Assembly (NCBI RefSeq): GCF_000022265.1
Contig: NC_011979.1
Location: forward strand, 1,050,001-1,082,000
Reading direction: 5' to 3'
DNA length: 32,000 nt
DNA from: Geotalea daltonii FRC-32
Lineage (GTDB): Bacteria > Desulfobacterota > Desulfuromonadia > Geobacterales > Geobacteraceae
Part shown: piece by piece, positions 2,896 to 29,607 of the stretch
How the letters are laid out: each line of letters starts with the position of its first letter
Numbering within the stretch: the stretch's first letter is position 1
Program-made: the position numbers and the translations under genes
Notes under the pieces: generated by a model
What the model was told of the DNA's origin: nothing
The model's database searches: none
What the model saw: the letters and a program-made list of their open reading frames with translations, nothing else

Positions 2896-2923
2896 GTTTT
2901 TTTTCATATTACGCTGCAATATT

Positions 2924-3021
2924 CCCTCTCCCTGAGGGAGAGGGCCAGGGTGAGGGGGCATTGAGCAGGTGGGCACTGCCCCTCATCCGGCCTTCGGCCA
3001 CCTTCTCCCATGGGGAGAAGG
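2924..3021. repeat. Cluster of nested palindromes (REP-like) between the FRG gene and cydA
   Basis: Four palindromes in a row: ccctctccc-tga-gggagaggg (2924-2944), an imperfect tgagggggca...tgcccctca (2951-2985), ggcc-ttc-ggcc (2990-3000), and ccttctccc-atg-gggagaagg (3001-3021). The first and last are near-copies of each other. Confidence 0.6.
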
Positions 3022-3090
3022 AAGCAGCAGTATCTAAAGGTAGTAATTCTCAGATGTCCTGTTAGTCAAAGTCTGAGTAGCGGAGGTTCC

Positions 3091-5425: not shown

Positions 5426-5444
5426 AGCCCGCTCAAATTCCCTT

Positions 5445-6467: not shown

Positions 6468-6555
6468 GGTCCCTCCATAAATGTCGGGAAATCGGCTCCT
6501 TGGTAAAAGTGTAACATGGCCTGCGGGAACGGCTGGCATTCAAAGGAGGTAATGG

Positions 6556-7725
6556 TTATTGATGGTCGGATTTCTTTCCCCAATCGACGCTCATTGCATA
6601 CTCCATGCAGCGCCTGAAGATGTCGTAGTTGAAATGGGGCGGGACTGGATTGGCCGAGTCCCGGTCGGTATTTTGCCGGTCAAAGATTCGGAGGTCGGAG
6701 AGGTAGGGACGGTAGGGTTCGATGAAGCGGTTGAAGAGCTCCTCGGCAGGGCTCGGTTCATATCTTGTGTCTTGGCCGTAGGTGATTTCCAATCCCCTTA
6801 TGTTGAGGAACCTTTCGCAGTATTCTGCCAGTTCTTCGGTTGTGCTGGGTTGTCCATTGGTCAGATGGTAAATGTTGTCAGTATTGGCTGCTTCAATAAT
6901 GGCGAGAGTGGCAGCTACGAAATAGTCGACCGGGATGAGGTTGATGCTGCCCGGCTGTTCCAAAGTCAGCCTTATGGGTAGATGAAGAATGCCCTCGCCG
7001 CCAAGGCGGATTCCATGGCCGGCTGACTTCATGCCCCCATTGTTCCGGATGTCGTTCAAGTAAATATCCCTGATGGCGGCCAGGGACCTCACATGGTGAT
7101 AGATGGCGTTGAAACGGTTGGCCCGGCCGCTTCGGGAATCGCCATAGACAATTGAGGGCCGGACGATAGTAAAGGGGATGCCGCAGGCACGGCAGCTATC
7201 GGCAATCCGGCGTTCTGCCATGGCCTTGGTCTCTTCATAGACGTTGAAGAATTCCGTGGATGATACCGGCCGCTCCAGACAAAGGCCGGGACTGATGCCG
7301 GTGCTGTAAGCGGTGCTGACGTAGTGGAAAGCGGAAGCCTTGCAGTCACTGGCGAAGAGTAGGAGGCTGTTGAGGCTGGTCACATTGGCAGCCAGTGATT
7401 GACCCCGATTGCGATCGGAAAAGGTGGTGTCCGATGCGCAGTGGATGACCAGGTCCGTCTCGGCGCACAGGGCCTGGTAGCGCTTTTGTTCAAGGCCGCA
7501 CCGGAGTTTGAGGAGATCCACTTCCGCCAGTTCCAGGTGCGAGCCTGGATGCTGCAGGCCAAACCACGCCAGTGTGGTGACGATCCGCTCCCCCAGGCTT
7601 TTGCTGCCGGCAGGCCTGCCGAAGACGATCAGTCGATCACCCCGCTTGAGAATTGCGGCCATGAGGTGACTGCCGAGAAACCCCGTTGCGCCGGTGAGTA
7701 CGATGGTGCGAGGTCTCTGTTTCAT
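6556..7725 (-). CDS. SDR-superfamily NAD-binding protein, thioester-reductase / fatty-acyl reductase-like (NAD_binding_4 type)
   Basis: TGATGFLGSHL Rossmann motif, HCASDTTF, FHYVSTAYS and YEETK (YxxxK). Its start overlaps the upstream gene's stop as ATGA (7722-7725). Confidence 0.75.
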   Translation of the reverse strand: MKQRPRTIVLTGATGFLGSHLMAAILKRGDRLIVFGRPAGSKSLGERIVTTLAWFGLQHPGSHLELAEVDLLKLRCGLEQKRYQALCAETDLVIHCASDTTFSDRNRGQSLAANVTSLNSLLLFASDCKASAFHYVSTAYSTGISPGLCLERPVSSTEFFNVYEETKAMAERRIADSCRACGIPFTIVRPSIVYGDSRSGRANRFNAIYHHVRSLAAIRDIYLNDIRNNGGMKSAGHGIRLGGEGILHLPIRLTLEQPGSINLIPVDYFVAATLAIIEAANTDNIYHLTNGQPSTTEELAEYCERFLNIRGLEITYGQDTRYEPSPAEELFNRFIEPYRPYLSDLRIFDRQNTDRDSANPVPPHFNYDIFRRCMEYAMSVDWGKKSDHQ

Positions 7726-9566: not shown

Positions 9567-10396
9567 CAGACCCCCTTCCGTTCGAGTCGTAGCGGCATCG
9601 TATCTTTGACCGCATAGCCCATGTACATCACTTTCGTGCATCTGCCCTCGATGAGCTGTAGCCGCAGGGCCAGGTCCTTGTAATTCCATTCGCCCCTGGC
9701 ACGGCGGCGCAGGTAGCTGAGGGTTCTGATGGGAGAGGTGGCCGGCTTGATGCCGCGATGTTCCCTCCAGCCCAGGTGACTTTTTTCCAGGAGCATTTTC
9801 AGTTCCTCCGGTTTGATGAATTTATTCCAGGTGTGCAGCTCGGGTGGCATCACGGCCCAGCGTTTCCATTTCTGCAAAACACCGATGGCCACCAGCCAGC
9901 TGGCGAGCGTGCGGTTAATGGTGTCGTAGCAGAAGATGCCGCCGGGCTTGAGAACCCTGGCGATCTCGGCCACCGTTCTTGTCTGGTCCTGCACATGCTC
10001 CAGCACGTCACAGCAGAACGCCACGTCGAACGAATTATCCGGGAAGGGAAGATTCTCGCCGACTGCCTGCAGATACCCTATGGAGAGCCCCCCGGCTTTG
10101 GCGTGATCGGCGGCAACCTGCAAGGCCGCCGCCGAAGGATCGATGCCTGTGGTCGTAAAACCCAAGGCCGCTATTTCTTCAGAGAGAATGCCTCCACCGC
10201 AGCCTACTTCCAGTGCGGTTCCCCCTTGCCGGCCATGCAACCGCTCGCGGAAATAGTTAATCCGCACAGGGTTGAGCGCGGTCTTCAGCATGTAGAGCGC
10301 CGAACGGGGCTGCCACCATGGATCCCGGTCAAAAATCGCCATGTCTGCAGGGGCTTCTGTCCTGCCTTGAGTGTGGGACACATGCCTCATTTTCAA
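9566..10396 (-). CDS. Class I SAM-dependent methyltransferase (UbiG/UbiE-like)
   Basis: LEVGCGGGILSEEIAALGF (motif I) and FDVAFCCDVLEHV. The start is uncertain: TTG 10396, ATG 10390 or ATG 10342. Confidence 0.75.
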   Translation of the reverse strand: MKMRHVSHTQGRTEAPADMAIFDRDPWWQPRSALYMLKTALNPVRINYFRERLHGRQGGTALEVGCGGGILSEEIAALGFTTTGIDPSAAALQVAADHAKAGGLSIGYLQAVGENLPFPDNSFDVAFCCDVLEHVQDQTRTVAEIARVLKPGGIFCYDTINRTLASWLVAIGVLQKWKRWAVMPPELHTWNKFIKPEELKMLLEKSHLGWREHRGIKPATSPIRTLSYLRRRARGEWNYKDLALRLQLIEGRCTKVMYMGYAVKDTMPLRLERKGV

Positions 10397-10705
10397 AAGT
10401 ATAGCATGTGATTTTTTTTATTAAATGTCGGCCTGCTTTACAGGGAAACTCTCCCTCATTGGTAAAAAGCTCGCGAAATCAGGGTAGAGTGGATGGTACG
10501 GGATATGAAATACGTACACATACTCAATAATCGGAAGAGTTGTTTTACGATCGACCGGCAGGCTGCAGCCGGCGGTTGTGCCGGTGCGGCGGGCTTTAGG
10601 GTGGGTTTTTTACCAGGATTGGCTTGTAAGCCATTCCGACGTCGCTGTCGGAGGAATTTACAGAGTTTGGCATTCAACTGTCGACGACACTGGTGGAGGT
10701 ATGAC

Positions 10706-11437
10706 ATGAACTGGTTTGACTTGCAGGTTGTTACCTTTCTCAATGGCTTTGCCCGGCAATCTTGGCTCTTCGATAAGACGATGAACATCTTTGCCGGTAA
10801 CATCATGTTCAAGGGGGGGATTGTCATTCCCCTGCTCTGGTGGCTTTGGTTTCGCCGGGACAAGGGTGCACAGGACAAGGCATACCTGCTGTCTACCCTG
10901 GCGGTATCGTTCCTGTCGTTGATGGTTGCCCGGCTGCTGGCGCTGGCGCTCCCTTTCCGGCTGAGGCCGCTGCACAACCCCCAACTTGACTTCACCCTTC
11001 CCTTTGGCACAAGGCCAAGTTCCCTGGAAGGATGGAGCGCCTTTCCCAGCGATCATGCTGCCCTCTTCTTTACCCTCGCCACAGGCATTTTCCTGCTGTC
11101 CCGCCGGGCCGGCATCTATGCCTATCTCCATGCTATTTTCATCATTTCCTTTCCCAGGGTCTACCTGGGGCTGCACAATGCCACCGACATCCTTGGCGGC
11201 GCAGCCATCGGCATAGCTATTGGATACCTGGTGCACCTGGATCGCCTGAGGCAGCTGACCGCCTCCCACCTGCTCAAATGGGAGGGCGCCTGCCCGGGTC
11301 TTTTTTATGCCTGCTTTCTGGTCATCAGCTATCAGATGATCTGCATGTTCGACCCGTTGCGCATACTGGGAAGCGAATCCCTGTTAATGGTCAAGCATCT
11401 GATCAAAGAGGCCGTGTTCACCGCCTGGGCGAAATAA
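10706..11437 (+). CDS. PAP2-family (type 2 phosphatidic acid / lipid phosphate) phosphatase, membrane protein
   Basis: PSDHAALFF and FPRVYLGLHNATDILGGAAIG match the PAP2 motifs. ATG at 10706 is preceded by GGAGG (10695-10699). Confidence 0.8.
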   Translation: MNWFDLQVVTFLNGFARQSWLFDKTMNIFAGNIMFKGGIVIPLLWWLWFRRDKGAQDKAYLLSTLAVSFLSLMVARLLALALPFRLRPLHNPQLDFTLPFGTRPSSLEGWSAFPSDHAALFFTLATGIFLLSRRAGIYAYLHAIFIISFPRVYLGLHNATDILGGAAIGIAIGYLVHLDRLRQLTASHLLKWEGACPGLFYACFLVISYQMICMFDPLRILGSESLLMVKHLIKEAVFTAWAK

Positions 11438-11441
11438 CCTC

Positions 11442-12377
11442 TTACCCTCTGACCTGCAGGACGATCTTCCCGCGGGCGTGATGTGACTGGCTTAGCATCT
11501 GAGCATTCCGGGCTTCTTCAAGGGGAAGGATCTTGCCGACGACCGGTTTTATATCGCCTGCTTCCACAAGTTCGGCGATCTTGCCAAGCTCCTTGCCGTC
11601 CGGGTGCATGAAGAGGTAGCCGACCCTGACGCCTGTTTGCTCAGCCAGTTCATGGTCCGGCTGTTCCAGGATGGAGACCATGGCCCCGTGCTGCTGTCTG
11701 AGTACCTTGAAGCTTTTGCGATAGGTTTCACCGCCGATGGTGTCGAAGACAATGTCGTAATCGTGGAGCTGCAAGGAAAAATCTCCCTTGGTGTAATCGA
11801 CGATCTGATCCGCCCCCAAGGACCTGACGAAATCAACATGTGCGGAGCTGCAGGTGGCGGCAACATAGCAGCCCTTGCTTTTTGCCAGCTGGATGGCGAA
11901 GGAGCCGACTCCGCCGGACCCGGCGTGGATCAGCACCTTGTCATCCTTTTTCATCCTGGCAAAATCCACCAATGCCTGCCAGGCCGTGAGCCCCACCAGC
12001 GGCACCGCTGCCGCCCCCTCAAAGGAGATGTTTGCCGGTTTCATGGCCACGTATTTCTCGTCAACGGCCACATATTCAGCATAGGTGCCGTTCCTGGCGA
12101 TATCGGTCCGACTGAAGACCTTGTCCCCTCTCTTGAATTTCGTGACTTCGGGGCCGGTGTCCACCACTACACCCGCCGCATCCCAGCCGAGGATAAGGGG
12201 AAACCGGTGGTGCAGCATATCCTGAAGGTAGCCTTCCCGTATCTTCCAATCCACCGGATTGACGGAGGCCGCATGAATTTCGATCAGCACATCCCTTTTC
12301 GTCACTGCCGGCTTCGGCAGGTCCATCAGCTGGAGCACCTCAGGTCCACCATATTTTTCAATGGCAACAGCTTTCAT
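11442..12377 (-). CDS. Zinc-type alcohol dehydrogenase / NADPH:quinone oxidoreductase-like (MDR family)
   Basis: MKAVAIEKYGGPEVLQLMDLPKP...IHAASVNPVDWKIREG and the IHAGSGGVGSFAIQLAK Rossmann motif. ATG at 12377 has GGAGGAAA upstream. Confidence 0.85.
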   Translation of the reverse strand: MKAVAIEKYGGPEVLQLMDLPKPAVTKRDVLIEIHAASVNPVDWKIREGYLQDMLHHRFPLILGWDAAGVVVDTGPEVTKFKRGDKVFSRTDIARNGTYAEYVAVDEKYVAMKPANISFEGAAAVPLVGLTAWQALVDFARMKKDDKVLIHAGSGGVGSFAIQLAKSKGCYVAATCSSAHVDFVRSLGADQIVDYTKGDFSLQLHDYDIVFDTIGGETYRKSFKVLRQQHGAMVSILEQPDHELAEQTGVRVGYLFMHPDGKELGKIAELVEAGDIKPVVGKILPLEEARNAQMLSQSHHARGKIVLQVRG

Positions 12378-12456
12378 GGCTATTTCCTCCCGGCACTGGA
12401 GAATGAACATCCTCTGAAAAGTGTAGCAACTACTGGAAGGAATGAAAGGCCGGCAA

Positions 12457-13251
12457 TCAGTGTCTGCGGCGGTGGAGCGCCTCTTCGACCGATTTTTTCC
12501 GGGGGCCGTCGAGGCGCCCGGATGCGAGCAGCTTTTTCAACTCGGCGGTATTCAAACCGGGGAGGAAGAGGTCGAACCAGATGAGCGGCGTTCGCTGGTT
12601 CTTGAGAATGGCGCCGATTATATTGGGGCGGGTTTTCCAGCGGGGGTGGCGTGCGATCATGGAGATGTTTTCGGCAGTGGCCCTGGCGCTGCTCAGGAAC
12701 TGAAAAATGAAGGCCTCCTTGATCTGTGGGTTTGAGAGACATATTTCCACGACCTGGGGATCTCCTTCCCTCAAAAGGGCCTCCAGGACGGGTGCCGTGC
12801 CGCGGCGGGCGAGGGTCAGCTTGTTGCCCAGGGGAGTGGTGGGGATGCGCTGGATGACGGCCCGTTCCGCAGCCAGTTTCTGGTCGGGAGTGACGCCGGG
12901 GAGAAAACAGACAGCCACCAGCTCGAAAAGATAAAGGTGCGGCAGCAACATGGTGACGATGGTGCCGGGGGTGTTCGGGTTTTTCACCAGGGCCAGCTTC
13001 AGGTTGTGGCTCTCGGCGGCGAGCGGCAGTTTGTGGATGGCCTTGATCAGGTCCTCAGGCAGGTCACGCCGTTTCAGGAGTGTCAGCAGGTGGGCTTCAT
13101 CCAGCGCCGGATTGCGCAGAGCCGCTCGCAGCACCTCAATGGAGGGCGATTGCAGCACCAGGTACAGCTCATCCTTGCCGGCGGTCAGGGCACTATGCAG
13201 CTGGCGGGATGAAGCTGGATCAAGGATATGTTTTTTTTCAGAGTCTTCCAT
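12457..13251 (-). CDS. Hypothetical helical-repeat protein (LRV/HEAT-like repeats)
   Basis: 264-aa ORF with recurring L..NP..P...L..LL units (ALRNPALDEAHLLTLL, LVKNPNTPGTIVTMLL, CLSNPQIKEAFIFQFL, ILKNQRTPLIWF). No enzyme motif was seen. Confidence 0.55.
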   Translation of the reverse strand: MEDSEKKHILDPASSRQLHSALTAGKDELYLVLQSPSIEVLRAALRNPALDEAHLLTLLKRRDLPEDLIKAIHKLPLAAESHNLKLALVKNPNTPGTIVTMLLPHLYLFELVAVCFLPGVTPDQKLAAERAVIQRIPTTPLGNKLTLARRGTAPVLEALLREGDPQVVEICLSNPQIKEAFIFQFLSSARATAENISMIARHPRWKTRPNIIGAILKNQRTPLIWFDLFLPGLNTAELKKLLASGRLDGPRKKSVEEALHRRRH

Positions 13252-14217: not shown

Positions 14218-14909
14218 TGTCTTGCCTCCGTCCAATGTCTTTGGTTCCCAGAACAAGTGAGTTACCCCATGCTGCGCAAGCTGTTTCAGTAAGCATTTCT
14301 GCTGTCCATCATAGTACTACCGTAAGGCTTTAGCCATTATTATTTGACAAGCAGGTGCTGCAAGGTCGGGTCACGTCACAGCGCGTCAGCGCCTTTGTGT
14401 CGACGCCTTGTTAGCCGTTTATTGCTTGCTTCTCAACTGCCTCAACCCGAAATACTCTCCAGCGGCGTCAACACTGTCGATATTACTCATCACCCCATAT
14501 TCAGCTTTTGGAGGTTTTCCAGGTTTGACAAAATAATAGCCGACATCCATTTGCGGTTTGAAGACTGTCTTCTTATTGCCTGTTACGACCTCAAATTTCC
14601 ACGCATATATCCATGAACAGAAATTCCGGCTTTTTGAAGCTTCTGTTCCTCGCCTCCCAAGAGGCAACAACTGTTAATTATTGCTATTTTATTGCATAAA
14701 TATAATTCTTTTTGCAATTTACAGAAATCACTGGTAGTGTCGCTCCTGGTCTCATGCTGTGAAGCACCATAATTTGCTTTCATCAACGGAGACGATAAAA
14801 ACATGGGGCTTCTCTGAAGGCTCCAACGGGGAGGTGTAGAGGCAGGCATATGATTTGATGGACGAAGCGATTGTTAACATCATCATTTAATGGAAAAGGA
14901 GAACAAAGC

Positions 14910-17297
14910 ATGGGGAAATTTTTAGTTCTAGCTGCTGTTTCATTTGCATCAGTGACCCTGATGGCTGCCAGCCAGGTCCAGGCAATAACCTATCAGACCC
15001 CACCCGTTTCAATGACTTACCATAATGGCGCGTCAAGCCAGGCCACATCGGTAAAAACCGATTCTCAGGGTAACATCTATGAAGCAGTAACCTCCATGGG
15101 TGAAAACGGCACGATCGTAAAGTTTACACCAGACGGGCAGACCGCCTGGACGGTGGATTTTGATCCCAGCAACCCGAGACCCGCAGACAAGATGGGCAAT
15201 TTTGTCACCAGCACAGGGATCGCTGCTGTTGCAGTTGACCGGAACGACAATATCTATGCCGTAGGAGAGTCCCACAACGGGATTGCACTCGATTGCCTGC
15301 TCAAGAAGTACAACGCCGACGGTACCCTGATCTGGCAGACCAGGTACAGTGTCCCCCAATCGGGCACCATCATCGAAGATCAGTACTGCCATGACATCAC
15401 AGTCGACAATGCAGGAGACATCATTGCCGGCGGAACTTCGTTAATCTTCAACGGAACAAATTATTCAGGTTACGGCAACCAGATTTTGAAATGGGATGCA
15501 AGCGGAAAGCTGATTGGAAAGTTCAATTTGAAAACCAACGGAACTGCGGCTTGCGGTCCAGCTACCCCCTGCCAGTCCCAGATCATGAAAGTTGTTACCG
15601 ATCTGAATCAGAACATCTACGCCATAGGGAAAATGGGTGGCGTATATGCCAATACGACATATTATCGCAAGTTCAGCAAAGACCTAATGCCTCTTGCCAA
15701 TCGTTATGCATATATCAATAATAATCTAAAAACCACTGCAATTGCGGTGGATACACAGGGCCATGTGTTCGGTAGCGGCTATGAAACTGTTTACAGTCCA
15801 ACTAGCGGCCATAATGCTGTTTATCGCACGATGAATGTTTTCGATTCGAATCTGAACATGCTGTGTGACGACAAAACGTATGTGGGGTTGCTGACGCAGT
15901 ATACGGATCCCACTCCTTATGGTTTCAATGCCATTGTTATCGGGCCGGACGAAAAGGCTTATCTGGCTGGAAGCCAGGACAAAAGTTTTGCCGTGATGGC
16001 ATATAATGCACAGTGCCAGCCCCAGTGGCTGGACGCTGCCGGGAATCCTGCCCTCCTGAAAGCGCAGGTGGACTCTTCGGATTTCAGCAATGCAGTCACA
16101 ATTGACAACAACAACAATCTGATCATAGCCGGCCGGAAGTCCGACCAGGTGGCTACTGATGCGGTTACCGTAAAGTTCGCACCAGTGGTGACACCAACAT
16201 CGTCCGACTTGGTTATTTCAGCTTTATTCGCCCCGAGCGCCCTAAAAACAGGACAAACTTTTAACGCGGGGGGATACTTGAGAAACCAGGGCGACGGACC
16301 AACGGGTGATGCTGTTTCAGGTGCCCACTGGCTTGGTTTATATCTCTCTACCGATAACATCATCAACCGGCAGGATATCCTGTTGTGCCGCACCCCGGTT
16401 ATCGCCCAGGCCGGCAGCCAAACACTGACATATCACTGCGAAGGAACCCCTCCGGCCAACCTCCTCACAGGGACATACCATGTAGGCGTGATTACCGACG
16501 ACGGCAACTTGATCTCCGAAACGGACGAAACCAACAACACCCATTCCGAACAATTGCAGTACACGGCACTGCCCGATTTGGTCGTTGTAAGTGGCGCTGC
16601 TCCGGCAAGCGCAGAAAATGGGCAACAGATTACTGTGACCGCCACCATCAAGAATCAAGGGGCTGGAGCAGCCATTAGTACAACGGCAGGGATATACATC
16701 TCTTCGGACAGCGACTTCGCAATGAGCGACTCGCCGGTCTGTAGCGCCGCAGTTGGTACCCTTGCACCAGGTGCGTCACAAGAAGTGTCTTGTACAGGGA
16801 CCATCCCTATGAATACTTATGGCGGAAAGGTCTATATCGGTGTTCTGGCCGATAACACCAATGCTGATGAAGAGACCAATGAAACTAACAATAGTTGGTC
16901 ACAGGCTTTTAGTCTTACCGCACTTCCTGACTTGGTGATTTCAATGGCAGTCAGCCCTGCAACTGCGCAGAGAGGTGAGCAGATTACAGTTAGCGGAACA
17001 GTCTCTAACCAGGGGTACGGGGCAACAGGTACGCAATACTCAGGTTATTATTTTGTGAGCATGTACCTTTCGCAGGACAATGTGATTACTTCGACAGACA
17101 CAGCACTTTGTAGTGTTGGATTCGGAACTACGCCTGCCAACACTACTATACCATTTAGCTGCACTGCTACGATCCCCGCATCCATTGCTGCCGGTAACTA
17201 TTATGTCGGTTTTGTTGCGGACAGTTATGGAAACGGTGTGGTTGAATCCGACGAGACGAACAATAATAAGGTCAATGCAATAGCAATTACACAGTAG
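14910..17297 (+). CDS. Exported beta-propeller-like protein with three C-terminal CARDB-type repeats
   Basis: MGKFLVLAAVSFASVTLMAASQVQA signal peptide, with ATG at 14910 preceded by AAAGGAGA. Recurrent D..GNIYA.G strands occur in the N-terminal half. About 16203-17294 holds three copies of LPDLV-...-GQQITV...NQG.GA...-ETNETNN units. Confidence 0.8.
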   Translation: MGKFLVLAAVSFASVTLMAASQVQAITYQTPPVSMTYHNGASSQATSVKTDSQGNIYEAVTSMGENGTIVKFTPDGQTAWTVDFDPSNPRPADKMGNFVTSTGIAAVAVDRNDNIYAVGESHNGIALDCLLKKYNADGTLIWQTRYSVPQSGTIIEDQYCHDITVDNAGDIIAGGTSLIFNGTNYSGYGNQILKWDASGKLIGKFNLKTNGTAACGPATPCQSQIMKVVTDLNQNIYAIGKMGGVYANTTYYRKFSKDLMPLANRYAYINNNLKTTAIAVDTQGHVFGSGYETVYSPTSGHNAVYRTMNVFDSNLNMLCDDKTYVGLLTQYTDPTPYGFNAIVIGPDEKAYLAGSQDKSFAVMAYNAQCQPQWLDAAGNPALLKAQVDSSDFSNAVTIDNNNNLIIAGRKSDQVATDAVTVKFAPVVTPTSSDLVISALFAPSALKTGQTFNAGGYLRNQGDGPTGDAVSGAHWLGLYLSTDNIINRQDILLCRTPVIAQAGSQTLTYHCEGTPPANLLTGTYHVGVITDDGNLISETDETNNTHSEQLQYTALPDLVVVSGAAPASAENGQQITVTATIKNQGAGAAISTTAGIYISSDSDFAMSDSPVCSAAVGTLAPGASQEVSCTGTIPMNTYGGKVYIGVLADNTNADEETNETNNSWSQAFSLTALPDLVISMAVSPATAQRGEQITVSGTVSNQGYGATGTQYSGYYFVSMYLSQDNVITSTDTALCSVGFGTTPANTTIPFSCTATIPASIAAGNYYVGFVADSYGNGVVESDETNNNKVNAIAITQ

Positions 17298-18710: not shown

Positions 18711-18777
18711 TTACTGCCTCCTTTGAAAAATAAATTATTCGTCGCTAGCGAGCATGTTGCCAACGATAACAATATAG

Positions 18778-18833
18778 GTTACTATCCGCAAGTAGGCACC
18801 TTTTTGTATTGTAGTTACCTTTTGGTTACTATC
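18778..18833. repeat. Direct repeat GGTTACTATC x2 in the SnoaL/HxlR divergent intergenic region (candidate operator)
   Basis: ggttactatc occurs at 18778-18787 and 18824-18833. The related gtaggcaccttttt / gtagttacctttt lies between them. Any regulatory role is inferred only from position. Confidence 0.3.
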
Positions 18834-18863
18834 GGATCTATCAAGGGGAAAAAGGAGATTTTT

Positions 18864-19226
18864 ATGCGGTGGGATGTGTATAACGAGCGCTGTCCGACCC
18901 GAATGGTCCTGGACCGCATAGCCGACAAGTGGACGGTACTCATTATTGGCTCGCTGGAAAAAGGGACGAGAAGATTCGGCGATCTTCGCCGGGAAGTGGG
19001 GGGGATTTCACAGAAGATGCTGACCCAGACATTGCGGGGGCTTGAACGGGACGGTCTGGTGACCCGTGTCATCTATGCCACTGTCCCCCCCAAAGTCGAA
19101 TATTCATTGACCGATCTCGGGCGGACCCTGGTAAGTGTCTTTGAGGGAATACGGCACTGGTCTGAAAGCAATATCGAGGAAGTTCTCAAGGCGCGGGAAT
19201 TCTACGACAGCCGTGGAGATGCGTGA
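18864..19226 (+). CDS. HxlR-family winged-helix transcriptional regulator
   Basis: CPTRMVLDRIADKWTVLIIGSLEKGTRRFGDLRREVGGISQKMLTQTLRGLERDGLVTR...PPKVEYSLT is the HxlR signature. ATG at 18864 is preceded by AAGGAG. Confidence 0.9.
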   Translation: MRWDVYNERCPTRMVLDRIADKWTVLIIGSLEKGTRRFGDLRREVGGISQKMLTQTLRGLERDGLVTRVIYATVPPKVEYSLTDLGRTLVSVFEGIRHWSESNIEEVLKAREFYDSRGDA

Positions 19227-19271: not shown

Positions 19272-20434
19272 GTGCGCCGGTGAAACCGGCGAGAGATAGT
19301 GAGTGAAAGTCTCATACGATGAAGGAGTAGCGAACCGCATCGGCCCCGAGTCATGCGCAGTCGTCCGTGAGGACGGCTGCGAAGCGTTGACAGGGGGGAT
19401 GTGGGCCAGGTATTGAGCCGCGAAAAGACCCTCATCCGGGGTGCCGACGCCATCGAGGGCAGCGGAAGGCAAAACGGGATGTCTCGTAAGCGCGAGAAGC
19501 ATTCCGACCCCGCGTGGTCTTAGACCCTGCGCACGCATGCAAGTCTCCCGCACGGGAACCGGGATATCCTGCGATTGGCCATTACGGATGGCATAATGGT
19601 CCGTGCCGTGAATTCTATGAAGCACGACGGCGATGCACGGTCGCGGGAAGTCGGACAGTTCCATAGTACCGAAGAAGCCCTCGAACAAAGGTTATGGTGC
19701 GCCACGGCCAGCGGAGGGGGTGGAGGGAAGGGGACTGGCCGAAGGGAATGCGTTGTTGCAAAACAGGCACTGAACACAGCGTCAGAAAAGGAATCGGAAT
19801 GGACAGCCGTAATAGGGCACAAAACGGGAAACCGCAGCAACAGCCAACGGCAAGCTCCCATAGCCGCTCCATAGACCTGCAAAGCGCGCGGCAACGCATA
19901 CGGCAGAAAGCCTTGGCAGATAAAGGTTTACGGTTCACAACACTCTGGCATCACGTCTATCACATCGACCACCTCCGGGAATCTTACTACAACTTAAAGC
20001 GGCACGCCGCACCGGGAGTGGACGAACAGACGTGGCAGCAGTACGGGGAGGACCTGGAAGGAAACCTTCAAGACCTCTCCAACCGGCTGCGGCGCGGAGC
20101 GTACCGGGCGAAGCCGGTCAGAAGGACATATGTCCCCAAATTAGATGGCAGCCAGAGACCAATCGGCATTCCCGCACTGGAAGACAAGATCGTCCAGCGC
20201 GCCACCGTAGAAGTCCTGAACTGCATCTACGAGGCCGATTTCAAAGGCTTCTCGTATGCATTTCGACCCAAGCGCAGCCAGCATAATGCGCTGGATGCGC
20301 TTACGGTCGGCATCACCACGAAGAAGGTGAGCTGGGTGCTTGATGCAGACATACGTGGATTTTTCGACGCCATCGACCACGCATGGCTGATGAAGTTCAT
20401 CGAGCACAGAATCGCGGACCAGCGCGTTATCCGT
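19272..20434 (+). mobile_element. Group II intron, 5' fragment (domains I-III region plus the start of the domain IV ORF); 3' half missing
   Basis: GTGCG at 19272 matches the intron 5' consensus. About 530 nt of non-coding, structured-looking sequence precedes the RT ORF. No YADD, maturase or domain V/VI sequence follows. Confidence 0.8.
19799..20434 (+). pseudogene. Group II intron reverse transcriptase/maturase, truncated after RT block 4
   Basis: RPIGIPALEDKIVQRA, FSYAFRPKRSQHNALDAL and WVLDADIRGFFDAIDHAWLMKFIEHRIADQRVIR are RT blocks 2-4. Similarity stops at about 20434 and the frame runs into unrelated sequence. RT5-7 (YADD) and the X domain are absent. Confidence 0.85.
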
Positions 20435-20819
20435 CATAAGGACTCAACCTTATTTCATGGGTGTACAAGTCGCCATGATTTTTCCCGGCACAGCCCTCAC
20501 AATCACGCGGGCCGTTAAAGCTGTAACTGTTCACGCCGCCGTACATAAGATGGATTCGTCGGTCGTGAAATGGTCCGAGTAAAGAGAGGTGGATTTCGAG
20601 CGTTCTGGCTTCGTTTCGATTGCCTTTTCCACTCTCTTTTATGGTGCACGTTTCCAGCCACGCATCATGCAGAGACGTAGGTGACTGGAGATCAAAATAC
20701 TTTGCGTCGGATGCAAATGCATAGACGTGCGCAGGCAGTCTATCTTTGATTGTGAGAAGGTATTCTTGGTACCCATGGAAGTCGATGCTGTCTGAGTCCG
20801 ACTTAAGAATGTGTTCCAT
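20427..20819 (-). CDS. Cassette ORF, hypothetical (polymorphic-toxin immunity-protein-like pattern, tentative); 3' end probably altered at the intron junction
   Basis: 130 aa, with AGGAAA before the ATG at 20819. The ...LHDAWLETCTI... segment resembles Imm-type proteins (weak). The last codon and the TAA stop lie in RT-derived sequence. Confidence 0.55.
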   Translation of the reverse strand: MEHILKSDSDSIDFHGYQEYLLTIKDRLPAHVYAFASDAKYFDLQSPTSLHDAWLETCTIKESGKGNRNEARTLEIHLSLLGPFHDRRIHLMYGGVNSYSFNGPRDCEGCAGKNHGDLYTHEIRLSPYDG

Positions 20820-21506: not shown

Positions 21507-21525
21507 GTTCGTGTCGTTTCGCTGT

Positions 21526-21873
21526 TTAGAACTTCCTTTTTATGAATTTCAGATAATATCCTAAGCAAATACAGAATAATGCAAACAGAACTAAATATAT
21601 TTGAATTAAATGAGGAATCTTTTTTACAACCAACATTAATATGCAAATCAGTAAGTAGCCTATTAGCTTTGAATACTTCTTACTGAACTCAGTCATTTCA
21701 TATAGATTGAACTTTATCGCAAGCCATGCCACTGGTAGAAAACAAAGCAAAGGAACGCTTACTACTTTAAGCGACCCACTTACTGAACCAGTCTCATGGA
21801 AAATGATAAATGGCATAAATGTGATGCCGAGTGCTATAAGGACTCCCAAAAACTTTTTTTCACTTAACTCCAT
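21526..21873 (-). CDS. Small polytopic membrane protein, paralog B (third gene of the large cassette)
   Basis: MELSEKKFLGVLIALGITF... has about 4 hydrophobic helices and is very AT-rich. It is paralogous to 21930-22292 (IKFNLYEMTEFSKKYSKL..VVKKIPHLIQIYL versus IKYKLFIMSEADKKYSQI..VTKKIPDTIKMYL). Confidence 0.7.
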   Translation of the reverse strand: MELSEKKFLGVLIALGITFMPFIIFHETGSVSGSLKVVSVPLLCFLPVAWLAIKFNLYEMTEFSKKYSKLIGYLLICILMLVVKKIPHLIQIYLVLFALFCICLGYYLKFIKRKF

Positions 21874-21929
21874 GCCACACCTCATAGGGGTTGGAGTTGT
21901 TGGTGCTGTTTGGTGTTTTTTTCAAACAG

Positions 21930-22292
21930 TTATAGTTTATTTTCATTTTTGACTCTATTTTTTGTTATTAAATATAGGAAAAGACAAATTGTTTCATATG
22001 AAATTACCAGCAAATACATTTTTATTGTATCAGGTATCTTCTTTGTCACTGACATCATAATGCACATGACTATGATAAAGATGATTTGAGAATATTTTTT
22101 ATCAGCCTCAGACATTATAAATAGTTTATATTTTATTACTATAAAAGCTAATGGCATAAATATTATAGTGGGAGCAATTATCATAGTTACTATGTCATAA
22201 ACTGACTTTATTTTGTACGGCACTACAATCATCATAGAAATAGTAAAAAATATTGTAATTAATTTAAGAAATCTGATGGCTTTTTCGTCCAT
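21930..22292 (-). CDS. Small polytopic membrane protein, paralog A (second gene of the large cassette)
   Basis: 120 aa with about 4 hydrophobic helices. Its ATG overlaps the stop of the 1032-aa ORF as TAATG (22290-22294). Confidence 0.7.
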   Translation of the reverse strand: MDEKAIRFLKLITIFFTISMMIVVPYKIKSVYDIVTMIIAPTIIFMPLAFIVIKYKLFIMSEADKKYSQIIFIIVMCIMMSVTKKIPDTIKMYLLVISYETICLFLYLITKNRVKNENKL

Positions 22293-25200
22293 TAGCCTAC
22301 CTCATACTTTCTTCTCAACCGAAGGTGACTTTCATTTATCCTTTGAATTAAAAACGCCTTAAGCATATTCATGCCTATAGCTATTCCAATTGATACCACA
22401 ATTGGCAGTGCTGGAAAGGCAAGAGCCAAAGCTACACCCAGCACCAGAAATGACGAAATTATTAAATAAGAGCTGAGCCATTTATAAGGGTCTACGTCTG
22501 GATTAGAGTTGATTTGATTTAGATCCTGAAACCATTGCACAACAGAAAATACAACTCCAAACATCTTTACTACATTTTGAAATACTTTAACAAATTCGGC
22601 ACTAATGCCATTTTTCAGTATGTCCAGTCTAAATCCAACCAATAGGCTAATGCCATCGACTAAACTCAATTTACTGTCGTCTACCGGCACGTTCGAGCCA
22701 TTTAGCCCGCCACCTATCATATACGCGCCTTCGCCGGTTGTCGGGTTCGTGATGATATATCCGCAGCCTGTCCACCCTTTAAAAGTGATGTCAGTTTTTG
22801 AAACAGTAACTACCTTCCCAGCATTTACGGCATTCTGAATATCTGTCTTTACCTGCGCGTCCACCTGAAGCTGCGGCAGGATGCTGGCAATGTTCGACTG
22901 GTTTACGGTGTAAATCGGTATACCCAAGTCATTGGCTATGTTCAGGGCTTTAACTGCCGAGACTCCTTCAACAGGTGCGGCAGGGGTGGAGAACAGTTGC
23001 TCCGGTACAGCGTGTTCCAAAGCCGAAGAGTTCATTCCCGTCGCCAAGAGGTACTGAACTTTTGCTGCCTCATCACCGTTAAGCGCCTTGTTCACGGAAA
23101 CATTCCTGTCAACGTCCATGACAAGCCCGCCGGAGCTTACACTGCGAGGTATTCCGAAAAACATATTCACCGCGACATCGGAAGAGAAGATGGCCTCCGA
23201 TGGATACCGCGCAGACGCCATACCCATCGTAGATGCCTGAACAAAATTCATTACATCGAGTTGAGCATAGTAGGTTAAAGCAGTGGAATAGAGAATATCG
23301 CCTATGATGTCATCTTTAGTGAGCCCGGATACTTCCTGGGCTTCGAGCTTTGCTTTAGTGTCCGCCATCTTTGCTTTTAGCCCGAGGAGTTGTGCCTGTG
23401 CTACCCTTCCAGTATCCAGGGCGATTGCGTTAAATGCCCCTGCAAATATCGGGTTCGAGACGATCTCAGATGAATAGGCGGGGCTGGAAAACGTCATATC
23501 AAAGGTTTCAATGGCACCGAGGGTAACTGGCGTGCCTGTCGCCACCACCTGCCCATCAATTCGAAGTTCTGGCTTTACTTTGATGAGATATGCGGGAAGA
23601 GATGAAGGAAGTTCGTTCGGCTGTATAGGTGTGCCGTCTGCATGTGGCTGTGGAAGATATGAGTTAATGACTGCTTCATCTTGGGGGGTGGCAGGTGAGT
23701 AGCTGAGGGTGATCTTCTTGCCAGCCAGTTCAGGCAGGGCCTTTGTTATGTTCAGGGATGTGTCTATAACGGTGGCATCCGGATCTATTAACGATAGATC
23801 GACAGAATCACTCCTGACGTTGAAAGACAGATTATGCCGATAATTATCAGGTAGTTCAGCAAACGCTACTCCCCGCATTGCGCCTCGGTACGGTAACGTG
23901 CCGAGCAAATAGGGGTATTCTTTCTTGTCTATCTCCTTCTTGCCAAGCACATCGCCAATCGCGGCATTGGGATGGTTTTGCTGGAGGTAGGTCTGCACCC
24001 TGGATTGATAATCCTGTAGTGTTTGCTGGGTGAGGAGGGAATTTAGGCCTGTTGCGTAGCCAGCGGTTTCGTTGATGGTGGCGGTAGATTTGATCTGGTT
24101 GACAAATGTCTGTGTGTCAAAGGGAACGGCGGTCTTTATGTCGATCCCATTGGTGTAAATGTACTGCTTATAGCTGGCGTCAAGGCTTATCCACGTGTCC
24201 CCTTTTCCGGTTTTGTGTTTCGCTCCGCGTGAAGGCCTGTAGTTAATCCAGGCGTCCACCCAGACGTGCTCCATTCTAACTGCTACTATTTTGCCGCTGG
24301 TAACCAGCCCTTTCGTCGGCATCCCGCCGCTGGACATGTAATCAAGGGCCGCCATAGGGTCGGTGAAACCACCTGCCCAGTTCATGACTTTCTCAATGGG
24401 AAGTTCTATGGTGCCTGTGACGTAGCGGGCATGGATGCCGGAAGCACGCAGGAGCGCAATGAGAAGAGACGCCGTGTCAATGGCGTTTCCCTGTTTGGTG
24501 AGAAGGGTTTGGTTGGCACCCTGAATGGAGCCCCAGGTGGGGACAAATTCGACGTTATTCCGCACCCACTCGTAAATCTTGACGGGCTTGTACTCAAGTT
24601 CCTGGGCCTTGGCTCTGATTTCCGGGGTTAGCTGGACTTCAATTGTTTCAGCAAGATCAGCAGGTCCGGCAGGTTCTTTTTTGAGTGGAGTAGTTGCGGT
24701 GACGGTGCTTGTCGTGAGTAACCCGGCCAAGGAGCCGGCCGAGGCGACCAAAATTCGCTTCTGGTCTCTCCAAGACGTCTGGTTTTTCTTTATGTCTTTC
24801 TCGAATTCTTCCTTGTTGAGTCTTGGCTCCCGCTTCTTAACTTTAGGTTGCCGGTGCGGGAGATTGTTGGGATCAAAGGGTTTATGTTTTTTCTCTACCT
24901 TGACCTTTTTCAGGTGTTTTACAGCCTTGTCAATCTCCGCTTCGGCTTCTGCTTTGTCTTTGGCCTTTTCGATCCGGTCGATGTTTCCCTTCAACTCGGT
25001 GAGATTGTCATCATAGTGTTTGACGAACTTGTAATGCCGCTGGAGGACTTCATCAGGTAGCTTCGCGTCTTTGAGCTTCTTTTCCGTCTCGGCGAACTGT
25101 TTGCGGATTTCCTTGTCTGCTGTTTCTATTTCAGTTTTAGCGGCCTTCAGCCGCTCTTTCTTGGTTTCAATATCCGCCTTGGTGTCAGCTAGGCTCGCTT

Positions 25201-25390
25201 GCAGCTCTTCCGTGGTTTTTGCAAACCGCTCCTCAGGACCAGCGGGTTTTTTCTTGTGCTGCTCCTTCGACTTTTCTTTCTTTATGGCGTCCTGCGCGGC
25301 ACTAGCAATGCTGAATACTCCGCAACCCGTCCATGTGAAGAAGCACAGTACGACTACCGCTATTACCTTTGAATATCTACGAAACATCAT
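22292..25390 (-). CDS. 1032-aa lipoprotein-like protein: coiled coil + transglutaminase-like core (Cys position = Ala) + large unassigned region + C-terminal hydrophobic helices
   Basis: GAGGAGGAG lies before the ATGATG at 25390. Lipobox-like FTWTGC. K/E-rich residues ~35-205. GNAIDTASLLIALLRASGIHARYVTG / MEHVWVDAW / WISLDAS match the transglutaminase core spacing. The C-terminus has LIISSFLVLGVALALAFPALPIVVSIGIAIGMNML. Confidence 0.85.
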   Translation of the reverse strand: MMFRRYSKVIAVVVLCFFTWTGCGVFSIASAAQDAIKKEKSKEQHKKKPAGPEERFAKTTEELQASLADTKADIETKKERLKAAKTEIETADKEIRKQFAETEKKLKDAKLPDEVLQRHYKFVKHYDDNLTELKGNIDRIEKAKDKAEAEAEIDKAVKHLKKVKVEKKHKPFDPNNLPHRQPKVKKREPRLNKEEFEKDIKKNQTSWRDQKRILVASAGSLAGLLTTSTVTATTPLKKEPAGPADLAETIEVQLTPEIRAKAQELEYKPVKIYEWVRNNVEFVPTWGSIQGANQTLLTKQGNAIDTASLLIALLRASGIHARYVTGTIELPIEKVMNWAGGFTDPMAALDYMSSGGMPTKGLVTSGKIVAVRMEHVWVDAWINYRPSRGAKHKTGKGDTWISLDASYKQYIYTNGIDIKTAVPFDTQTFVNQIKSTATINETAGYATGLNSLLTQQTLQDYQSRVQTYLQQNHPNAAIGDVLGKKEIDKKEYPYLLGTLPYRGAMRGVAFAELPDNYRHNLSFNVRSDSVDLSLIDPDATVIDTSLNITKALPELAGKKITLSYSPATPQDEAVINSYLPQPHADGTPIQPNELPSSLPAYLIKVKPELRIDGQVVATGTPVTLGAIETFDMTFSSPAYSSEIVSNPIFAGAFNAIALDTGRVAQAQLLGLKAKMADTKAKLEAQEVSGLTKDDIIGDILYSTALTYYAQLDVMNFVQASTMGMASARYPSEAIFSSDVAVNMFFGIPRSVSSGGLVMDVDRNVSVNKALNGDEAAKVQYLLATGMNSSALEHAVPEQLFSTPAAPVEGVSAVKALNIANDLGIPIYTVNQSNIASILPQLQVDAQVKTDIQNAVNAGKVVTVSKTDITFKGWTGCGYIITNPTTGEGAYMIGGGLNGSNVPVDDSKLSLVDGISLLVGFRLDILKNGISAEFVKVFQNVVKMFGVVFSVVQWFQDLNQINSNPDVDPYKWLSSYLIISSFLVLGVALALAFPALPIVVSIGIAIGMNMLKAFLIQRINESHLRLRRKYEVG

Positions 25391-25441
25391 CTCCTCCTCG
25401 CCGTTGAAATCATTTCATTATTTATGGTTCTCTTTCAATTC

Positions 25442-25497
25442 TCTCAACGGGCCGGGAGATCACCGGCCATCAGGCCGGTGTATCTTCCTGGTTATCT
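25442..25497 (-). other. attC recombination site
   Basis: Minus strand: R'' AGATAAC ... R' GTTGAGA. Internal pairing ccggcc/ggccgg. 56 bp. The upstream ORF ends inside it. Confidence 0.75.
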
Positions 25498-25862
25498 GCT
25501 CGTTTTGAAACATCTATTTCGTCGCTCTGATGGATATCAACAATGAAAGAACCAATGATAACAAAGACCGCCATGGTCATTACAAAATACACATGATGAA
25601 TCAAGCTTCTAAAGGTGAGTCCGTAGATCATGTAGGTAATCAGCCATCCAGCAGCAATAAACAGTCTTATTATTCTATTTGATTCATATTTTCTTCGTAT
25701 TAAATACAAGCCGACATCAAGGCTAAGAGCAATTGACCAAGTCGCAAGGATTATTTGCATTGACCTTGCTCGTTCCGCGCTATCCCACACTATAAGCAGG
25801 CACAACACATATGAGAGCCCGATCGCCGTTAGGAATTTTCTTTTTTCCGATTTGCTTGTCAT
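25470..25862 (-). CDS. Cassette ORF, 4-TM membrane protein
   Basis: 130 aa with four hydrophobic segments. GAAGGAAATC lies before the ATG at 25862, directly after R' GTTATCT. Confidence 0.65.
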   Translation of the reverse strand: MTSKSEKRKFLTAIGLSYVLCLLIVWDSAERARSMQIILATWSIALSLDVGLYLIRRKYESNRIIRLFIAAGWLITYMIYGLTFRSLIHHVYFVMTMAVFVIIGSFIVDIHQSDEIDVSKRADNQEDTPA

Positions 25863-26401: not shown

Positions 26402-26575
26402 TTATGCATATCGCTTGTTATTTGTGATTCCAAAAGTAAGGCCAATTGCGATAACTCCAACGAATCCAAAGAGCAATGCTACTCCAACCTTATTGGCTTC
26501 TTTTTTGGATATTGTGGTCCCGCTGAAGCCGACCTTGTAATCGTGTTTATCTTTATTCTTCATTTTTTCTCGCAT
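26402..26575 (-). CDS. Small ORF with one C-terminal TM helix (start 26575 or 26563)
   Basis: MREKMKNKDKHDYKVGFSG...VGVALLFGFVGVIAIGLTFGI. The tracked N-terminal extension (to 26638) runs through the attC-like palindrome. Confidence 0.4.
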   Translation of the reverse strand: MREKMKNKDKHDYKVGFSGTTISKKEANKVGVALLFGFVGVIAIGLTFGITNNKRYA

Positions 26576-26633
26576 AATGGCGCGGCAGTTGACCGGGCGG
26601 TGTTTTTCGGCCCGGTCAACTGTCTTGTTGGAG
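26572..26633 (-). other. attC-like site with a degenerate core
   Basis: Minus strand: R'' CTCCAAC ... R' ATTATGC (A in place of the core G). The stem cagttgaccgggc/gcccggtcaactg is a perfect 13 bp with no bulge. Confidence 0.5.
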
Positions 26634-26642
26634 TTCACCTAT

Positions 26643-29030: not shown

Positions 29031-29426
29031 TTATGTCTTTTTCAGTTTCTCATATGTCTGCCAAAAGCATTTTTTGTATGCCGAATACGCTCTCGCTACG
29101 TCATTTTCTGTTACATCTTCCTCGATTGCTGAGGCACCGACCATCGTCTCGAACTTCTTCGCCACCATGTTCCAGCTTTTCATCAATGTCTTCGATTTTT
29201 TTGTCAGGTTTTTCCTTAGCTCGATGCCTTCTTCCGTCAGTGAGTATTTCTTCCCGACCTTACACACCAATCCCTGTTGGATAAGCCAACCCAAGCTTGT
29301 TTGTAGCTCCTTGTGAGTCGGGATCGCGTGGTTGAGGCCGTCAGCCGTCGCAATGACTTCCTGCAACGACGCAGGCTTTTCAGGTACCGACAGAAATATC
29401 CAACTGTAAGTTTCCGATTCGTTCAT
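29031..29426 (-). CDS. Cassette ORF, small winged-helix-like protein
   Basis: MNESETYSWIFLS... The tracked start at 29549 crosses the attC, so the ATG at 29426 was chosen. TSLGWLIQQGLVCKVGKKYSLTEEG resembles a wHTH wing. Confidence 0.55.
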   Translation of the reverse strand: MNESETYSWIFLSVPEKPASLQEVIATADGLNHAIPTHKELQTSLGWLIQQGLVCKVGKKYSLTEEGIELRKNLTKKSKTLMKSWNMVAKKFETMVGASAIEEDVTENDVARAYSAYKKCFWQTYEKLKKT

Positions 29427-29437
29427 TTTTTTCTTTT

Positions 29438-29499
29438 GTACAACGTCACAAGCCTGACCAGCGGAACGAAGTGGAGACTGGTCTAGGCGCAAGTTATAC
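29438..29499 (-). other. attC recombination site
   Basis: Minus strand: R'' GTATAAC ... R' GTTGTAC. Internal pairing gaccag/ctggtc. 62 bp. Confidence 0.8.
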
Positions 29500-29607
29500 A
29501 TTTCTCTCCACTTTGGGAGGTAATAATGAACACTGTAAGAAAGGCCCAAGAGTTTCTTCTTAGACCTATAAAAAATTTCATAATCAACACAGTAGCAGAG
29601 GCGCTGA

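Follow-up and report, generated by a model that had tools for sequence, protein, structure and literature searches.

An outsized integron gene cassette of Geotalea daltonii FRC-32 that probably carries a polymorphic toxin–immunity module

Introduction

What does an integron gene cassette several times larger than its neighbors carry, and is it really one cassette? The question is raised by a 32,000-nt stretch of the genome of Geotalea daltonii FRC-32 (contig NC_011979.1, positions 1,050,001 to 1,082,000 of the forward strand; this whole stretch is referred to below as the window), in which two attC-like repeats enclose three genes. They encode a giant protein with an N-terminal export signal and two small membrane proteins, here called A and B:

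22292-25390, minus strand: giant gene Geob_0980, a 1032-aa open reading frame (ORF; WP_230199015.1), predicted polymorphic toxin
21930-22292, minus strand: small protein A, Geob_0979, 120 aa with four transmembrane (TM) segments, predicted cognate immunity protein
21526-21873, minus strand: small protein B, Geob_0978, 115 aa with four TM segments, predicted leftover immunity gene

An initial reading of the letters by a model that ran no database searches (the sequence-only reading) had placed the three ORFs at these coordinates and on this strand, with a TAATG overlap between the stop of the giant gene and the start of A and a 56-nt gap between the stop of A and the ATG of B at 21873, all of which was reproduced here. 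The ATG at 21873 is the annotated start of Geob_0978; read from its first ATG, the B ORF is longer (21526-21885, 119 aa). Exact-sequence look-up identified the three products as G. daltonii FRC-32 proteins, ACM19342.1 having the same description as WP_230199015.1 and being 1 aa shorter, and a literature search with the Geob locus tags found no paper mentioning these genes. The sequence-only reading had regarded the function as unassignable. That view can be revised, because the unit falls, by its sequence, within the known polymorphic toxin class, beside the "inactive transglutaminase" toxins, and the cassette probably carries a polymorphic toxin–immunity module.

Results

A Conserved Scaffold Followed by an Exchangeable Tail

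The giant protein has more than 1,300 (>1,356) relatives, which are full-length, mostly about 1,000 aa long, and found mainly in Geobacteraceae, Desulfuromonadales, Nitrospirota, Thermodesulfovibrionales and Syntrophaceae; P0033 is a second family paralog in G. daltonii. Family alignments of 23 sequences (A1) and 108 sequences (A2) were built, and gene neighborhoods were compared at 73 loci from species-representative genomes, many of which are metagenome-assembled genomes (MAGs) with possible frameshifts. The parts of the giant protein are as follows:

25298-25390, minus strand (aa 1-31): signal peptide or signal anchor with a conserved AxA site at its end
24176-24634, minus strand (aa 253-405): transglutaminase-like core (Pfam Transglut_core, E=3.6e-19), nucleophile missing
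22697-24175, minus strand (aa 406-898): post-transglutaminase scaffold of about 490 aa, conserved and without known fold
22697-22777, minus strand (aa 872-898): junction motif GWxGCGYIIxNPxTGxGAYMIxGG at the end of the scaffold
22295-22696, minus strand (aa 899-1032): variable C-terminal tail, hydrophobic, with three predicted TM helices; predicted toxin module

Conservation ends abruptly behind the junction motif. Pairwise identity per 30-aa block is 55–84% up to aa 900, apart from one block (aa 511-540) at 47%, and its mean falls from 71% at aa 871-900 to 9% at aa 901-930 among the 108 sequences, with the tail blocks at 7–10%. Matches found by tblastn at the 73 loci mostly stop near query residue 898-901. 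The scaffold has a GC content of 50.5%, compared with 38.3% for the tail, 24.8% for A and 32.8% for B, and the GC drop coincides with the identity drop at the scaffold/tail junction.

Behind the same junction, relatives carry tails of quite different kinds. NlpC/P60 domains score 40.4, 53.4, 26.8 and 24.0 bits, above the cut-off of 23, and there is a CHAP match as well; one tail resembles prokaryotic phospholipase A2 at 28.4 bits, below the cut-off of 29.4, and the matches to SLT and Tox-ART-HYD1 are weak and likewise below cut-off. Most of six related ART-like tails contain an RHYT motif, one of them reading RHFT. At locus L035 the tail is 1,875 aa long, with RHS-type YD repeats read by eye and a last 246 aa without Pfam hit. 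The peptidoglycan hydrolase and phospholipase-like tails, which would act in the periplasm, have no membrane helices, and the ART-like tails have membrane helices in front of the enzyme domain, a distribution by which we judge the logic of the family to be coherent.

The gene after the giant changes with the tail. An adjacent ORF is present almost throughout, starting −25 to +120 nt from the giant stop in 70 of 83 copies. If two loci have similar tails, their downstream proteins are far more often similar as well (odds ratio 108, p=1e-19, from pair counts 14/34/9/2358 with loci treated as independent). Hydrophobic tails pair with multi-TM downstream proteins (39/9/9/13, p=0.002), and the proteins downstream of soluble enzyme tails are 200–440 aa long, several with signal peptides and including beta-propeller/repeat types. 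At five loci (L030, L052, L059, L038 and L011), full copies are followed by orphan modules, which are 5′-truncated copies that start at query residues 269-772, each equipped with a tail and small gene of its own. Taken together, the sharp junction, the co-varying next gene and the orphans form the signature of a polymorphic toxin–immunity system, and with the allele pairing described below they lend weight to the effector/immunity layout that had been suspected from gene order.

A Predicted Cognate and a Probable Leftover Partner

The two small proteins are paralogs (34% identity over 108 aa, E=9e-20), as had been noticed at the outset, and each has four hydrophobic segments. Against their closest orthologs the ratio of nonsynonymous to synonymous substitution rates (dN/dS) is 0.16 for A and 0.09 for B, values that speak for purifying selection and hence for real, constrained genes. 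A word-indexed search with A returned only itself and one ortholog. Two loci with close relatives of the giant, each with a single small gene, and a short trace in the spacer between A and B are informative here:

L075 (P0001): N-terminal part of the giant 92.5% identical, tail 98.6% identical; sole small gene 80% identical to A
L001 (P0002): N-terminal part of the giant 89.6% identical, tail 63.5% identical; sole small gene 83% identical to B and 37% to A
21877-21886 of the window, minus strand: TATGAGGTGT, 10 nt, remnant of a giant gene's last codons (Y-E-V) just upstream of B

Within the 56-nt spacer, TATGAGGTGT aligns with the last codons and stop region of the L001 giant, directly before its B-type gene. 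By this scar and the pairing of small genes with tail alleles, A and B are probably not equivalent partners. A appears to be the cognate immunity protein of the present tail, and B is probably the leftover immunity gene of a sister tail allele. On the simplest reading of these alignments, B once served a P0002-like tail, and a module of tail plus A recombined in while B stayed. The original picture of one giant with two small partners thus holds for A, which goes with the present tail, and B looks left over from a displaced one. Immunity genes that stayed behind in this way have been described at other polymorphic toxin and type VI secretion system (T6SS) loci (PMC3482391; PMC5361080).

Export Signal, Dead Transglutaminase and Scaffold Structure

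In the family alignments, F18, W20, T21, G24, A29 and A31 are nearly invariant. The FTWTGC stretch of the window protein had been taken for a lipoprotein-type signal. Relatives have FFTWTSGG where the window protein has TWTGC, with Gly in place of Cys23, and the lipoprotein reading is not supported, because the lipobox Cys is unconserved in relatives and the AxA site alone is kept; the N-terminus is thus a plain signal peptide or signal anchor. Between this signal and the transglutaminase domain lies a K/E-rich helical region of about 200 aa (coiled coil plus linker, aa 32-250).

Transglut_core is the sole domain recognized by Pfam in the giant protein. Its GNAID aligns to GVCRD of 3isr (a Cytophaga protease), the family consensus being GNAFD, so that Ala303 stands in the place of the nucleophilic Cys; His375 and Asp404 remain, and N302, D305, E374 and D404 are invariant across the family alignment. 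Because of the change to Ala303 we count the transglutaminase domain as inactive, and by its sequence it is catalytically dead. The coiled coil, the transglutaminase-like core, the WTGCGY...GG motif and the hydrophobic C-terminus noted initially are all present; what that description missed is the loss of the nucleophile.

The AlphaFold2 model of the giant protein (mean predicted local distance difference test score, pLDDT, 78.6; predicted template modeling score 0.78) is confident at aa 50-896, and its tail is helical with low confidence. A Foldseek search with the full model against the Protein Data Bank (PDB) matched only transglutaminases, including 3isr, and a PDB sequence search with the family profile matched only the 3isr transglutaminase core. 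When aa 405-900 were modeled separately (pLDDT 58), all Foldseek matches had E>0.19 and were meaningless, giving no PDB fold match. The structural search proposed by the sequence-only reading therefore recovered the transglutaminase core, and the rest of the scaffold is without PDB relatives. NCBIfam and PADLOC scans of the three proteins returned only sub-threshold coiled-coil or hydrophobic noise.

Two ideas about the junction were set aside. Cys876 as an autoproteolytic nucleophile was dropped with Val found at this position in P0120, and NPxTG as a sortase-like signal was dropped with the motif lying in a confidently folded beta-hairpin; that the region after the junction motif can be a whole enzyme domain in relatives counts against both.

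In sequence searches, plasmid-borne RHS repeat proteins of Burkholderia, Methylomonas and Spartinivicinus aligned by their N-terminal part with scaffold residues 240-873 (E 1e-26 to 1e-38); the matched protein of B. gladioli has 2,059 aa and is followed by a small ORF. On a gammaproteobacterial plasmid of Paraglaciecola mesophila (NZ_CP047657.1, L078, 4602-8613), a 1,044-aa hypothetical protein matches scaffold residues 286-895 with 24% identity (E=1e-38), a 275-aa hypothetical protein comes next and a site-specific integrase is nearby. This match indicates that the RHS-less architecture also occurs outside the anaerobe lineages. Some genomes contain two full-length family members in tandem (L007:9714-13642; L008:2391-9072); the second copy of L007 has an interruption of about 1.2 kb between residues ~360 and ~351, possibly an insertion or an assembly problem.

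A Single Cassette of Four Kilobases

The array of attC-like repeats lies on the minus strand and runs from about 20430 to the window end. We built a covariance model (R1) from 13 attC-like repeats of this array only, which scores its own training repeats at 37–66 bits; a first scan with regular expressions and minimum free energy (MFE) was too noisy and was superseded by this model. The 13 aligned repeats share an invariant AAC...GTT plus an inner helix, in which 88% of cells are paired, compared with 25–41% when the partners are slid. Compensatory changes occur at six pairs, and the observed covariation was reached by 0 of 500 shuffles. The bounds of the unit are:

25440-25499, minus strand: attC of the upstream cassette, 41.3 bits (R1 training member), R′ box GTT at 25448-25446
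25391-25447, minus strand: cassette leader and ribosome-binding site (..TTCAACGGCGAGGAGGAGATG), conserved before the giant genes of L002, L034 and L075
21442-21508, minus strand: the cassette's own attC, 65.7 bits (R1 training member), R′ box GTT at 21450-21448

Judged from the sequence, the upstream crossover point (G|TT) is 25448|25447 and the downstream one 21450|21449, so that the cassette extends from 25447 to the G at 21450. The unit between the two attC sites measures 3,998 nt and holds three genes. Other attC-to-attC spacings are 418–730 nt, with one of 1,334 nt; the unit is thus 5.5–9.6 times the ordinary size, in line with the description of it as outsized. An R1 search of 21509-25439 with filters off and E<=10 found no internal attC, as the sequence-only reading had also reported from its inspection for palindromes.

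The upstream attC forms a strong single-stranded DNA hairpin (z=-4.4), yet it is the second-weakest consensus match of the 13. The cassette's own attC is the best consensus match and a poor hairpin by MFE (z=+0.7); pairing of its L″/L′ boxes (AGCGCGACAC / GGTGCGCT) needs two extrahelical bases. A promoter/terminator scan performed no better than shuffles, and a promoter-like match at 25438-25409 is at chance level.

Applied to other assemblies, R1 detects in three of them an attC that immediately follows a giant-plus-small-gene unit and is nearly identical to that of the window:

L002, Geobacteraceae MAG: terminal attC 50.8 bits, one small gene
L034, Desulfuromonadaceae MAG: terminal attC 46.3 bits, two small genes, as in the window
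L075, Logan contig: terminal attC 41.8 bits, one small gene

Homology among the four loci starts at the R′ box GTT and runs through the leader and ribosome-binding site; the DNA before the GTT differs. The same leader and terminal attC in other arrays, behind differing DNA, indicate one mobile cassette type which, as read from these alignments, is inserted in different arrays of four genomes. The attC-free interior and the recurrence of the whole unit confirm a single outsized multi-gene cassette, and we conclude from the comparison that the 4-kb unit is a single integron gene cassette.

Genes Linked to the Family Elsewhere

No genes for the type V secretion system (T5SS), T6SS or other secretion systems recur in the neighborhoods of the 73 loci. 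In 29 of the 38 loci whose downstream sequence extends for 3 kb or more, the next gene after the unit, in the same orientation, encodes a large signal-peptide protein (named BIG here). An alpha/alpha-toroid (prenyltransferase/TED-like) forms its N-terminal domain, CarboxypepD_reg repeats and MG2 come next, and the length can reach about 1,800–2,000 aa. An example is L004:9593-14914, with homologs at L006, L008, L017-L019, L021, L031, L038, L043 and L045-L053, and further ones at L056, L058, L062, L066, L068, L069, L073 and other loci. BIG may be a functional partner of the scaffold.

Surroundings of the Cassette

Group II intron sequences adjoin both visible ends of the array. At the distal end, a truncated intron lies at 19306-20430 on the plus strand, opposite in orientation to the cassettes, with an Rfam RF02005 match at 19306-19527 (191 bits). 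The resemblance of its reverse transcriptase (RT) ORF (19694-20518) to intact RTs stops at about 20430, where the truncated intron abuts the stop and R″-like GATAAC of the last cassette ORF (20427-20819). A group IIC-attC intron is listed for this genome (CP001390; PMC3001079). Past window position 32000 (L076:1-1275) there are two or three more attC sites, after which the opposite strand encodes another group II intron RT/maturase (RVT_1 plus GIIM) that looks intact; L076 showed no integron integrase. In L002, the attC in front of the homologous giant cassette is itself immediately preceded by a group II intron RT ORF (92-1072, plus strand), which resembles the truncated RT of the window (shared DAIDH.WL.KFIEHRIADQRVIR), from which it appears that introns accompany this cassette type in two genomes.

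Elsewhere in the array, a weak attC-model match at 26570-26635 on the minus strand (11.8 bits, E=0.45) lies inside the 1,334-nt unit (attC at 27205 and 25871) and may be the decayed remainder of an attC by which this unit was formerly divided into two cassettes of ordinary size. The ORF 29031-29549 runs through a strong attC (29436-29501, 58.7 bits), which indicates that the real gene starts downstream of the attC and that the mechanical ORF start is wrong. The first 13,000 nt of the window (1-13,000) are a high-GC chromosomal part (55–62% GC). An 808-aa protein with CARDB and beta-propeller repeats (14871-17297, plus strand) and an HxlR-type regulator (18723-19226, plus strand) are encoded between this part and the array, and both are unrelated to BIG.

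Comparison with Known Systems

The closest relatives by architecture are the "inactive transglutaminase" toxins, Sec-exported RHS toxins with a lost catalytic residue (Zhang, Iyer, Aravind et al. 2012, PMC3482391), such as WP_013700275.1 on a plasmid of Burkholderia gladioli BSR3. Both have an N-terminal signal or TM segment, a dead transglutaminase and, at the C-terminus, a variable toxin with an immunity-type gene behind it, and aa 240-873 of the window scaffold are homologous to the N-terminal part of these proteins. In that class the transglutaminase follows the signal/TM directly and an RHS array is present, whereas the window protein has the ~200-aa coiled coil in between and no RHS array, which among its relatives was seen only at L035. 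In the window family, which has no RHS cage, a family-specific junction motif leads straight into the tail, tails are mostly short and hydrophobic with polytopic membrane partners, and many loci have the linked large CarboxypepD_reg/MG2 protein.

A conserved body, a junction motif, a swapped tip, a downstream immunity gene and orphans are the defining features of contact-dependent inhibition (CDI) and Rhs systems. The same features are given in PMC3482391. With CdiA-CT/CdiI and Rhs-CT/RhsI the window unit shares a conserved body, a sharp junction to an unrelated tip of lower GC, an immunity gene directly downstream, 5′-truncated orphan modules and retained extra immunity genes. Unlike CdiA and Rhs, it has no TPS domain, CdiB partner, VENN or PxxxxDPxGL motif and begins with a plain Sec-type leader; PAAR, VgrG and T6SS genes are absent near the family loci.

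In pore-forming colicins and the ionophoric CdiA-CT of Escherichia coli EC93, the killing domain is paired with a small polytopic membrane immunity protein. The window unit is similar in having a hydrophobic helical C-terminus and a multi-helix membrane protein of about 115–120 aa directly downstream; Imm-CdiI is listed in PMC3482391. Its tail, in contrast, has no match to colicin pore domains or Tox-WTIP, is only about 135 aa long with three helices, and comes without recognizable receptor-binding or translocation domains.

With other integron cassettes, including two-gene toxin–antitoxin cassettes, the unit shares its G|TT bounds, its own 3′ attC and its recurrence in different arrays. It differs from its ordinary neighbors in size and gene number (4.0 kb and three genes, compared with about 0.4–0.7 kb and one gene), and from toxin–antitoxin cassettes in that its predicted cargo is an exported antagonism weapon rather than an intracellular pair. 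At T6SS loci of Vibrio cholerae, sequential effector displacement is reported to leave arrays of immunity genes (PMC5361080). An extra non-cognate immunity gene downstream of the current pair is common to both; the delivery system is another one, and here the whole array lies inside an integron cassette.

Discussion

The Proposed Module

In the explanation that we regard as probable, Geob_0980 would be exported via Sec by its N-terminal signal, its residues 1-898 (coiled coil, dead transglutaminase and the ~490-aa region) would serve as a presentation or delivery scaffold, and the last ~135 residues after the junction motif would form an exchangeable toxin module. The hydrophobicity of the tail suggests a membrane-targeting toxin. 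By analogy, damage by the three-helix tail to the cytoplasmic membrane of neighbors without the antidote is the most likely mechanism, which we hold with less confidence than the module itself. A would be an inner-membrane protein of four helices, its translation coupled to that of the toxin, and would neutralize the tail in the producer and its kin; B, kept when the new module of tail plus A recombined in, would protect against neighbors with the sister allele. The packaging of leader, toxin, immunity gene and attC would allow a weapon-plus-antidote unit to move between integrons.

Several observations weigh against this explanation. The window tail has no Pfam hit and no recognizable toxin domain, so that its toxicity is argued by analogy with other alleles, and a hydrophobic C-terminus could be a mere membrane anchor. 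Among 1.84 billion representatives it has two related ones, both same-family fragments, and that search gave no sign of the window tail on other delivery scaffolds. Since Cys876 is not universal, no processing mechanism can be proposed. The co-variation statistics count phylogenetically related loci as independent, the TM counts come from a simple hydropathy window, and the 34 tail-similar pairs have no detected similar downstream protein, in part as a result of contig ends and ORF picking. The cassette has no linked secretion or delivery machinery that would bring a Sec-exported protein to another diderm cell, and BIG, the neighbor of most non-cassette loci, is absent from the window and from the integron-cassette versions. 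A look for an integron integrase among some but not all of the window ORFs by Pfam, and in about 2.3 kb beyond the window end, gave a negative result, so that the cassette is at present only presumably mobile.

A bolder extension is that the scaffold (coiled coil, dead transglutaminase and a beta-rich domain) and its BIG partner constitute an undescribed toxin-delivery route, with integron cassettes shuttling effector–immunity units into machinery encoded elsewhere. Such a route of anaerobic diderms (Desulfuromonadota, Nitrospirota), which would be Sec-dependent and either contact-dependent or vesicle-borne, is possible but doubtful.

Alternative Explanations

The alternative that survives best, though we consider it unlikely, makes the giant a non-toxic structural or adhesive protein of the periplasm or cell surface, anchored by its C-terminal helices, with the small membrane proteins as co-evolving subunits or chaperones and the tail variation as relaxed constraint or partner co-evolution. 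It would suit a window tail that is simply hydrophobic, without an enzymatic or known pore-forming domain and with low AlphaFold2 confidence, as well as the linkage of most non-cassette loci to a large surface-type CarboxypepD_reg/MG2 protein; the dead transglutaminase has been proposed as a peptide-binding anchor only (PMC3482391). However, the same position in relatives is occupied by peptidoglycan hydrolases, by an RHS-repeat tail and by sub-threshold phospholipase A2 and ART-like matches. Nor does a structural role account well for the abrupt change from 71% to 9% identity at the GC break, the orphan truncated modules, the leftover partner gene with its 3′-end scar, or the occurrence of the unit on integron cassettes and beside integrases. 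The identity and GC break, the orphans, the scar and the integron setting point to recombinational exchange rather than drift.

The sequence-only reading had also raised a phage-defence module, in which the exported giant would sense phage at the envelope and the membrane proteins would execute or restrain damage in an anti-phage or abortive-infection cassette. Compact defence modules could plausibly reside in integron cassettes, and a membrane-active tail with small membrane proteins would fit one. We nevertheless consider this very improbable: PADLOC gave weak coiled-coil matches for the giant (E 0.003–0.09), which we take as noise, and left A and B without a match; the 73 neighborhoods have no recurring defence genes; and the cell-wall-hydrolase tails and secreted beta-propeller-type proteins point to antibacterial effectors acting in the periplasm rather than to sensing of phage inside the cell.

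That the unit is two or three ordinary cassettes of unrelated genes with decayed attC sites is scarcely credible, since, despite a short hairpin between A and B and an own attC that demonstrates how poorly palindromic such sites can be here (MFE z=0.7), R1 has no match in the interior (21509-25439, E<=10), the giant gene and A overlap at TAATG, the unit keeps its leader and terminal attC in three other genomes, and each of the two small genes goes with particular tail alleles.

Significance

Polymorphic toxins are a main currency of bacterial competition and have been studied mostly in Proteobacteria (T5SS, T6SS, Rhs) and Firmicutes. The toxin–immunity module proposed here belongs to a populous uncharacterized family that is found in Geobacteraceae, which reduce metals, in Nitrospirota and in other anaerobes living in sediments and aquifers. 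It is not a new kind of system, as polymorphic toxins and dead-transglutaminase scaffolds are already known; the family differs from the described class in having no RHS cage, its own junction motif, a long coiled coil, a predominance of membrane-type tails and immunity proteins, and a frequent large partner.

A 4-kb unit of this kind would exceed the functional range and size usual for cassettes, and a literature search on bacteriocin/immunity cassettes in sedentary integrons found nothing relevant. The A/B pair and its recombination scar offer a compact natural case of tail-and-immunity replacement. A complete toxin–immunity unit as a cassette in four genomes contrasts with the 0.4–0.7-kb single-gene units of the array around it. 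If the prediction is true, the cargo of a sedentary integron can include a whole weapon together with its antidote in one 4-kb unit, and such a toxin–immunity cassette would be addictive and self-stabilizing in the array.

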